DNA of 27,634 nucleotides, taken from Candidatus Saccharimonadia bacterium. GTDB lineage: Bacteria > Patescibacteriota > Saccharimonadia > Saccharimonadales > Saccharimonadaceae. The stretch lies in assembly GCA_023257755.1 (NCBI GenBank), contig JALRBM010000094.1, forward strand, positions 1 through 27,634. The letters run 5' to 3'. Positions 13,713-13,770 of this stretch are shown one piece after another (the first letter of the stretch is position 1; each line of letters starts with the position of its first letter). The position numbers and the translations under genes are program-made. Under the pieces are notes generated by a model that ran no database searches, was not told the origin of the DNA, and worked only from the letters and a program-made list of their open reading frames with translations.

Positions 13713-13770
13713 CGTTAGTTCCATAGTTGTATGTACTATGCTGATGAGCTGGAAACAGCGAAAACTAACG
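13713..13770 (+). ncRNA. Type III hammerhead ribozyme; predicted cleavage 3' of C13721
   Basis: Stem III CGTTAGTT (13713-13720) pairs with AACTAACG (13763-13770). Cleavage triplet UUC. Stem I CATAGT/ACTATG with loop TGTATGT. Core CTGATGA (13741-13747). Stem II GCTG-GAAA-CAGC. Core GAAA (13760-13763). All core nucleotides and all three helices are present in the correct order. Confidence 0.9.

Follow-up and report, generated by a model that had tools for sequence, protein, structure and literature searches.

What would a putatively self-cleaving RNA motif do at the 3' border of a single, GC-rich gene that sits between dnaE and trmH in a CPR bacterium? The window (the whole stretch of DNA analysed here, 27,634 nt of contig JALRBM010000094.1 from a Candidatus Saccharimonadia bacterium) holds such a motif at 13713-13770. 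The CPR origin proposed in a first-pass annotation of the bare sequence fits the 0.77-Mb size of the assembly, the 0.6-1.1 Mb of its relatives, and the ribosomal protein L19, which is nearest to Candidatus Saccharimonadota clusters. Our answer, to which we give a probability of roughly 0.7 on the strength of sequence comparisons, is that the motif is a functional type III hammerhead that would form the 3' end of a single-gene mRNA.

The gene (the cargo) and its flanks were annotated as follows:

9493-13239: dnaE, upstream of the unit
13243-13271, + strand: predicted sigma-70-type promoter (TTGACT-17-TATATT, with TG before the -10 element)
13280-13296, + strand: 5' hairpin (CGCAC / GTGCG)
13298-13309, + strand: 5' arm of the closing helix, GAAGAGAUGAGG, purine-rich, containing a GAGG Shine-Dalgarno motif and ending 6 nt before the AUG
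13316-13648, + strand: cargo ORF P0001, 110 aa, GC 0.71 and GC3 0.96 in a genome of 51% GC
13658-13695, + strand: perfect 16-bp hairpin without a U tract, followed by CGCCCCCUC
13701-13712, + strand: 3' arm of the closing helix, CCUCAUCUCUUC, a pyrimidine segment resembling an anti-Shine-Dalgarno sequence and directly abutting stem III of the ribozyme
13765-14328, - strand: SpoU/TrmH methyltransferase gene, convergent (PF00588, 1e-29)

These parts make up a single gene with its own promoter and with the ribozyme at its 3' border, no spacer being left after the 3' arm. The promoter belongs to a recurring type (TATTGAC[AT]-N17-TAnnnW) that heads many GC-rich ORFs of the genome. A search for intrinsic terminators (G+C-rich hairpin plus U tract) found none on the + strand of 13150-14400. 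In the minimum-energy fold of 13278-13775 (498 nt) both hairpins (the 5' and the 16-bp one) and the closing helix are formed and the ribozyme takes up its active fold; the stability of this structure stands well apart from that of shuffled sequences (z = -5.0; 0/100). A chimeric assembly was considered and rejected, because contigs of a second sample, drawn from the same study, span the unit's two junctions and show no differences.

Two further observations concern the neighbourhood. Read on the minus strand, 13280-13296 forms a hairpin followed by AUUUUUCAAA that scores as an intrinsic terminator, and it could end trmH transcripts running antisense to the whole cassette. At the other end, the longest ORFs of trmH (- strand) and of a divergent gene for a PilB-like T2SSE ATPase (+ strand) overlap by 258 nt at 14071-14328; the SpoU and T2SSE domains begin at residues 29 and 227, respectively, and the true starts of both genes are probably internal to these ORFs.

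The ribozyme itself, all on the + strand, is built from these elements:

13713-13770: type III hammerhead ribozyme, predicted cleavage between C13721 and C13722
13713-13720 with 13763-13770: stem III, 8 bp, all Watson-Crick
13721: C17, the cleavage nucleotide (triplet UUC)
13722-13727 with 13735-13740: stem I, 6 bp, all Watson-Crick
13728-13734: loop I, UGUAUGU
13741-13747: core CUGAUGA
13748-13751 with 13756-13759: stem II, 4 bp, all Watson-Crick
13752-13755: loop II, GAAA
13760-13763: GAAA (G12, A13, A14 and A15.1), with A13763 pairing to U13720

Every core residue and the helices of 8, 6 and 4 bp claimed in the first-pass annotation match to the base. The pairs that flank the core (C13722-G13740, 1.1-2.1; G13748-C13759, 10.1-11.1; A13763-U13720, 15.1-16.1) are free of mispairs. 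Stem III is open, stems I and II are closed by their loops, and both RNA ends lie in stem III, which is the type III topology. This fold is the minimum-energy structure of the motif taken alone (RNAfold), and each of the sequence and structure features by which Perreault et al. (PMC3088659) recognise hammerheads is present in 13713-13770. With 8 bp in stem III, the 3' fragment may dissociate slowly. The cut would fall 9 nt past the inverted repeat (arm at 13701-13712, cut after C13721), and the trmH stop codon (13765-13767) and last codon (13768-13770) lie inside the 3' strand of stem III, 6 nt being common to both; each of these points had been annotated correctly. The dual use of bases with trmH is dispensable, as the ribozyme stands 80-230 nt from the next gene in two relatives (L045 and L048).

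A chance origin of the motif is excluded, because a structural descriptor matched three times in the 772-kb genome and not once in 30 dinucleotide-shuffled genomes. Two further copies lie on other contigs of the genome (C52 and C25). The Rfam hammerhead models, named earlier as a check, recover the motif in part: with relaxed thresholds RF00008 (Hammerhead_3) gave a local match of 22.8 bits (E 0.012) over model positions 8-47, with stem III omitted, and at gathering thresholds no Rfam match was found in the window (48.5 bits for RF00008), so that standard Rfam annotation misses the motif. RF00008 scores for the two sister copies were 27 and 23.2 bits. Hammerhead_II matched nowhere in the genome, and the control for that search likewise matched nowhere.

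A covariance model (R1) was built from the genome's three hammerhead copies. Of 61 related genomes, 27 contain matches to it (36-80 bits, at most nine copies in any one); in a phylum-wide sample it matched at E ≤ 1e-6 in 13 of 151 genomes, 10 of them outside the window's family. Pairing, covariation and core conservation were counted in an alignment of 32 copies (A2). In this alignment 92.8% of cells are paired, and double changes occur at 15 of 17 pairs, in all three stems; the covariation score is 0.767, compared with 0.28 for shuffled partners (0/500 reach 0.767) and 0.06-0.15 for slid partners. Of the core residues, U4, G8 and A9 are kept in all 32 copies and C3, G5 and A6 in 31 each; the A15.1-U16.1 pair is present in 32/32, G12, A13, A14 and G10.1-C11.1 show little or no variation, and N7 is free to be U, C or A. 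The reading of UUC as a triplet that obeys the NUH rule, with C13721 as C17, agrees with the homologues, in which N17 is C (25 copies), U (5) or A (2) and never G. The positions that are fixed or nearly so are those that catalysis requires. Loop I retains a UGYRU-like motif and loop II reads NAAA in 30 of 32 copies, a conservation beyond the needs of pairing; since both loops are conserved, a tertiary contact between them is plausible. Strong covariation across the 32 homologous copies supports the motif as a genuine, evolutionarily conserved hammerhead, for which self-cleavage is predicted.

The unit as a whole is also conserved. Its close orthologues, in a genome of the same genus (G004) and on Logan contig L043, align with it over promoter, ORF, hairpins, arms and ribozyme. 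In orthologues the 16-bp hairpin carries several compensatory changes, and in that of G004 one pair of the 5' hairpin has changed from G-C to A-U. Four relatives found by profile were looked up and gave five loci (L045-L049), all with a long perfect hairpin of unrelated sequence and then a hammerhead at 54-67 bits; a convergent SpoU gene adjoins four of these loci, and dnaE is seen upstream of two. A hammerhead stands 3' of the cargo-family gene in all eight further loci (L043, G004, G014, L045, L046, L047, L048 and L049, among which L046 and L047 encode an identical protein), and trmH adjoins seven of the eight. The G014 cargo may be a distant homologue of the window's (hhalign E 0.015).

The layout dnaE-cassette-hammerhead-trmH occurs in five genomes from four genera, and the ribozymes of these five are each other's nearest relatives (identity 0.79 versus 0.59). 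The junction holds a different cargo, in both cases a membrane protein, in G009 and G026, and other genes with no ribozyme in G003 and G002; it is a hot spot for accessory genes. In G002 (L038) the junction contains a gene for a CHAP-domain cell-wall hydrolase without a hammerhead, and in L046 a CHAP gene lies upstream of the cargo-plus-hammerhead unit. Judged by these comparisons, the unit is old and the ribozyme has been co-inherited with the cargo gene family through deep divergence.

The second conserved feature is the closing helix, in which the Shine-Dalgarno region (13298-13309) pairs over 12 bp with the bases just before stem III (13701-13712). In G004 and L043 this helix differs by one change from A-U to G-C and two wobble changes. 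End pairing is retained with different sequences in seven cargo-family loci (e.g. AUCGAGAAGG and GUGAGAGG), where the purine-rich segment ends 3-7 nt before the start codon and its partner is a pyrimidine segment just before stem III; by eye, the helix has a bulged U in two of the seven. Taken over all 31 copies, end pairing did not reach significance in a duplex-energy test (median z -0.6). The helix is clear in a subset of cassettes only, this cargo family included, and end pairing was judged by exact-match and orthologue-based tests instead of duplex energy.

Two sister cassettes of the genome, on C67 and C70, have an SD-containing closing helix of 11 or 13 nt and no hammerhead, and a canonical terminator follows 15-20 nt later. 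Ribozyme and terminator therefore hold equivalent places, which supports a role of the ribozyme in 3'-end formation: most likely, it defines the 3' end of the mRNA, in the place taken by an ordinary terminator in sister cassettes. The first-pass proposal that the ribozyme could replace a terminator thus gains indirect support, from these two cassettes and from the terminator-free + strand of 13150-14400.

In the reading that we favour, transcription would start from the strong promoter, at about 13278, and would take in the 110-aa ORF and the 16-bp hairpin that lacks a U tract; because no intrinsic terminator follows the ORF, the polymerase would continue into the ribozyme. The ribozyme would then fold and cut after C13721. 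The upstream product would be a compact mRNA whose last 9 nt extend beyond the 12-bp closing helix to a 2',3'-cyclic phosphate; this end would be protected from 3' exonucleases, and the closed helix would mask translation by laying the anti-SD segment of the 3'-UTR on the Shine-Dalgarno region. The downstream product, consisting of the ribozyme and any read-through RNA antisense to trmH, would start with a 5'-OH and would probably be cleared by RNase J. The genome encodes RNase J (486 bits), and in Bacillus this enzyme removes 5'-OH fragments of this sort. Cyclic-phosphate protection, SD masking and RNase J clearance are grounded in knowledge of other bacteria.

The cargo protein gave no Pfam or PHROG match. 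Its AlphaFold models are all-beta but uneven (pLDDT 79 for the best, 38-53 for the others), and a Foldseek search against the PDB returned nothing below E 0.08. A protein profile, searched against 1.84 billion representatives, gathered about 20 small relatives of 98-118 aa. Short parts of the profile were also matched in 11-13 repeated stretches of P0005, P0006 and P0012 (864-2423 aa), which may have a repeat motif in common with the small cargo family.

The nucleotide composition of the cargo was compared across window positions 13316-13648, L036:1040-1372 and L043:1501-1830. Between the window and G004, amino-acid identity is 61% for the cargo, compared with 81% for dnaE and 73% for trmH, and third-position differences at four-fold sites of conserved residues are 0.22 for the cargo, compared with 0.76 for dnaE and 0.64 for trmH; the expectation at saturation is about 0.55 for the cargo and 0.73-0.74 for the flanking genes. 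Over all three pairs of close lineages the cargo value is 0.16-0.30, so that synonymous change has gone about half way to saturation or less, with the flanking genes saturated. GC3 of the cargo is 0.93-0.97 in the three close lineages and 0.71-0.92 in distant relatives, and always exceeds that of the neighbouring gene. Fast protein change, low synonymous divergence and high GC3 together imply that the synonymous sites of the cargo are held, and by these comparisons its odd composition is maintained and not recent. RNA structure, codon choice or another force may hold these sites. Selection on the ribozyme-cut form of the RNA could account for the held GC3; a more speculative possibility is that these epibionts deploy the RNA or the protein against their actinobacterial host, whose own GC is high.

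Three other ideas about the cargo were considered and rejected. A fresh transfer from a high-GC donor does not agree with a GC3 of 0.93-0.97 kept in the G004 and L043 orthologues beside saturated flanks. Capture of host mRNAs at terminator hairpins by a reverse transcriptase (RT) was set aside, as no RT was found in the genome and the cargo is an old resident of the locus. For the GC-rich C-terminal part as the variable region of a diversity-generating retroelement, neither a template repeat nor an RT was found. Separately, a contig from a run of an unrelated study (X4) aligned to window 13363-13615 with about 92% identity to the cargo, and C/G exchanges make up 9 of the 19 listed differences, as expected with GC3 held.

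The cargo has counterparts in composition elsewhere in the genome. Ordinary genes, of GC3 about 0.55, are interspersed with about 22 ORFs whose GC3 is about 0.8-0.96 and which make up 1.8% of the assembly. Examples are:

C4:7378-8037
C67:284-724
C70:4157-4627
C89:5692-7830
C92:132-770
C116:5795-6424

About 12 of these ORFs lie behind the promoter TATTGAC[AT]-N17-TAnnnW with an AT-rich spacer, and most have a G+C-rich hairpin at their 3' side; a hammerhead ends only three. Among hammerheads of relatives, GC upstream of the ribozyme exceeds GC downstream by 0.095 on average (in 25 of 29 copies), and for eight of ten cargos sampled from relatives no Pfam match was obtained. The two other hammerhead cassettes of the genome carry the following cargos:

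C52:6342-7286 (L003:1657-2589), - strand: Tad4-domain protein, second hammerhead cassette (PF25186, 6e-23; phrog_9822, 3e-28)
C25:3101-4327 (L004:1616-2842), - strand: band-7/SPFH-like membrane protein, third hammerhead cassette (phrog_200)

The Tad4 (type I Thoeris inhibitor) cargo has its best phage matches in Bacillus phages and was not found in four congeners; an anti-defence gene is unexpected in the genome of an epibiont. For the band-7-like cargo, all 362 matches in the phage collection are from phages of Mycobacterium, Streptomyces, Gordonia and Rhodococcus, at identities of up to 47% (about 46% for the Gordonia and Rhodococcus phage proteins); a search of congeners with that query did not find it. 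By these matches both cargos look phage-derived. Downstream of the Tad4 gene, a terminator-like hairpin lies about 40 nt after the ribozyme. After this hairpin, at L003:1380-1470 (- strand), a long inverted repeat similar to the heat-shock operator CIRCE was noticed by eye; it overlaps the promoter of an Hsp20-type gene.

Cargos of actinophage type (the band-7-like protein and the Tad4 domain) would agree with a hammerhead that is a remnant or terminal piece of a module of mobile or phage origin, or a recombination site at the DNA level; it would travel with swappable cargo and play no part in expression today. The frequent association of bacterial hammerheads with prophages (PMC3088659) points the same way, as does the cargo at the dnaE-trmH junction, which differs between genera (G009 and G026 versus the window). 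However, the motif has the pattern of change of a working ribozyme (an invariant core with compensatory changes in three stems), and gene and ribozyme have been kept together over a divergence at which the flanking genes are saturated with synonymous change. Neither an integrase nor a repeat adjoins the unit, and no RT (PF00078) was found in the 89%-complete genome. We consider a relic quite improbable.

The surroundings of the copies bear on another alternative, in which the main role of the ribozyme is to insulate or to stand in for a terminator: it would cut off read-through and either shield trmH from antisense RNA or decouple downstream promoters. RNase J would degrade the downstream 5'-OH RNA and perhaps dislodge the polymerase, and the shape of the upstream end would be incidental. 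The lack of a + strand terminator after the cargo and the presence of RNase J agree with this, as does the orientation of the copies: the next gene is convergent in 17 of 29, at least seven of the 29 lie within 6 nt of the stop of that gene (the window's entry corrected by eye), and the hsp20 and rpsB promoters come right after the genome's other two hammerheads. The earlier suggestion from the sequence, that cleavage parts the message from read-through RNA running antisense to trmH, fits a 3'-end-forming role as well. However, the next gene is co-directional in 12 of 29 copies, and relief of antisense transcription is therefore not the whole story; nor does cleavage alone halt RNA polymerase. 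The C52 ribozyme is followed by its terminator-like hairpin anyway, so the ribozyme is not a plain replacement for termination everywhere, and this arrangement suggests that the kind of end left by the cut is itself important. That the closing helix covaries and lies directly against stem III is a sign of selection for the upstream product. On balance we regard an insulator whose upstream end is incidental as unlikely, and prefer a ribozyme that makes the 3' end of the message.

The closing helix would also bring both ends of the transcript together, and the ends of hammerhead products have the chemistry used by RtcB-type ligases, which invites the idea that cleavage releases or circularises an RNA, either as a viroid-like or retrozyme-like circle or as a processed downstream RNA. 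Against this, each unit has one ribozyme, with a leader of about 38 nt that leaves no room for a second; no direct repeats bound the unit; the 5' end would be a triphosphate; and RtcB (PF01139) was not found in the 89%-complete genome. A circular RNA was rejected on the single ribozyme per unit and the failure to find RtcB, and release or circularisation is in our judgement the most improbable of the alternatives, with a very small share of the probability.

Within the preferred reading, in which the ribozyme makes the mRNA 3' end, a more specific proposal can be put forward tentatively, with the odds against it: hammerhead, covarying closing helix and U-less hairpin may together form a previously undescribed mRNA device, capped by a cyclic phosphate, resistant to exonucleases and translationally masked once the 3' arm is made. 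If so, protein synthesis would be confined to a brief period during transcription or would have to await a regulated unmasking.

The wider interest is that a bacterial hammerhead would be tied to a definite task, the making of mRNA 3' ends. Because the ribozyme stands at a terminator position, abuts a conserved helix and is kept with one gene family, this role is testable with simple mutants, and some Saccharibacteria are now genetically tractable. A second puzzle is touched as well, namely why such cassettes keep an actinobacterial type of codon usage in a genome of 51% GC.

Since 2010-2011 bacterial hammerheads have been known in their hundreds, mostly in prophages and often with several around single genes, and their biological role has been described as unclear (PMC3088659). 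A literature search found no paper joining hammerheads with Saccharibacteria, Patescibacteria or TM7. The closest known systems are the type III hammerheads of bacteria and prophages (RF00008, clan CL00010; Perreault et al. 2011, PMC3088659), with which the present ribozyme has in common the core, the three-helix junction, an open stem III and closed loops, as well as an intergenic position at the edge of single genes of varied identity. The hammerhead-flanked gene of Agrobacterium is the anti-restriction gene ardA (PMC3088659), and here a sister cassette encodes a Tad4 anti-Thoeris domain. The present ribozyme differs in its score of 22.8 bits, below the 48.5-bit gathering threshold of RF00008, and in its setting. 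Phage hammerheads dice a long transcript in several copies, whereas here a single copy lies 3' of a monocistronic unit with its own promoter. It is chromosomal, holds a conserved position beside core genes in a CPR lineage, and adjoins a covarying helix in which the SD region pairs with the bases just 5' of stem III.

In the glmS ribozyme of Bacillus subtilis, self-cleavage reportedly gives a 5'-OH downstream RNA that is degraded by RNase J1. The likeness lies in the predicted 5'-OH downstream RNA and in the RNase J encoded by this genome. However, the glmS ribozyme is located in the 5'-UTR, responds to a metabolite and brings about the loss of the mRNA that carries it. The present ribozyme follows the ORF, would leave the coding part in the upstream product, and implies no ligand. 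The criteria for a viroid or retrozyme circle, namely two cleavage sites or direct repeats together with a ligase or RT, do not describe this unit. Intrinsic terminators occupy the same place at the unit end, as the hairpin and U tract after the closing helix of C67 and C70 illustrate, but the hammerhead has no U tract, does not release the polymerase and is predicted to leave a 3' cyclic phosphate in place of a 3'-OH. In synthetic biology, RiboJ-type hammerhead insulators make the transcript end independent of neighbouring sequence. The present hammerhead likewise stands at a cassette border, but it is natural, lies at the 3' and not the 5' border, and is coupled to pairing between the 5'- and 3'-UTRs. 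The class of ribozyme is known; this is a new member of it in an unusual, conserved and testable setting.
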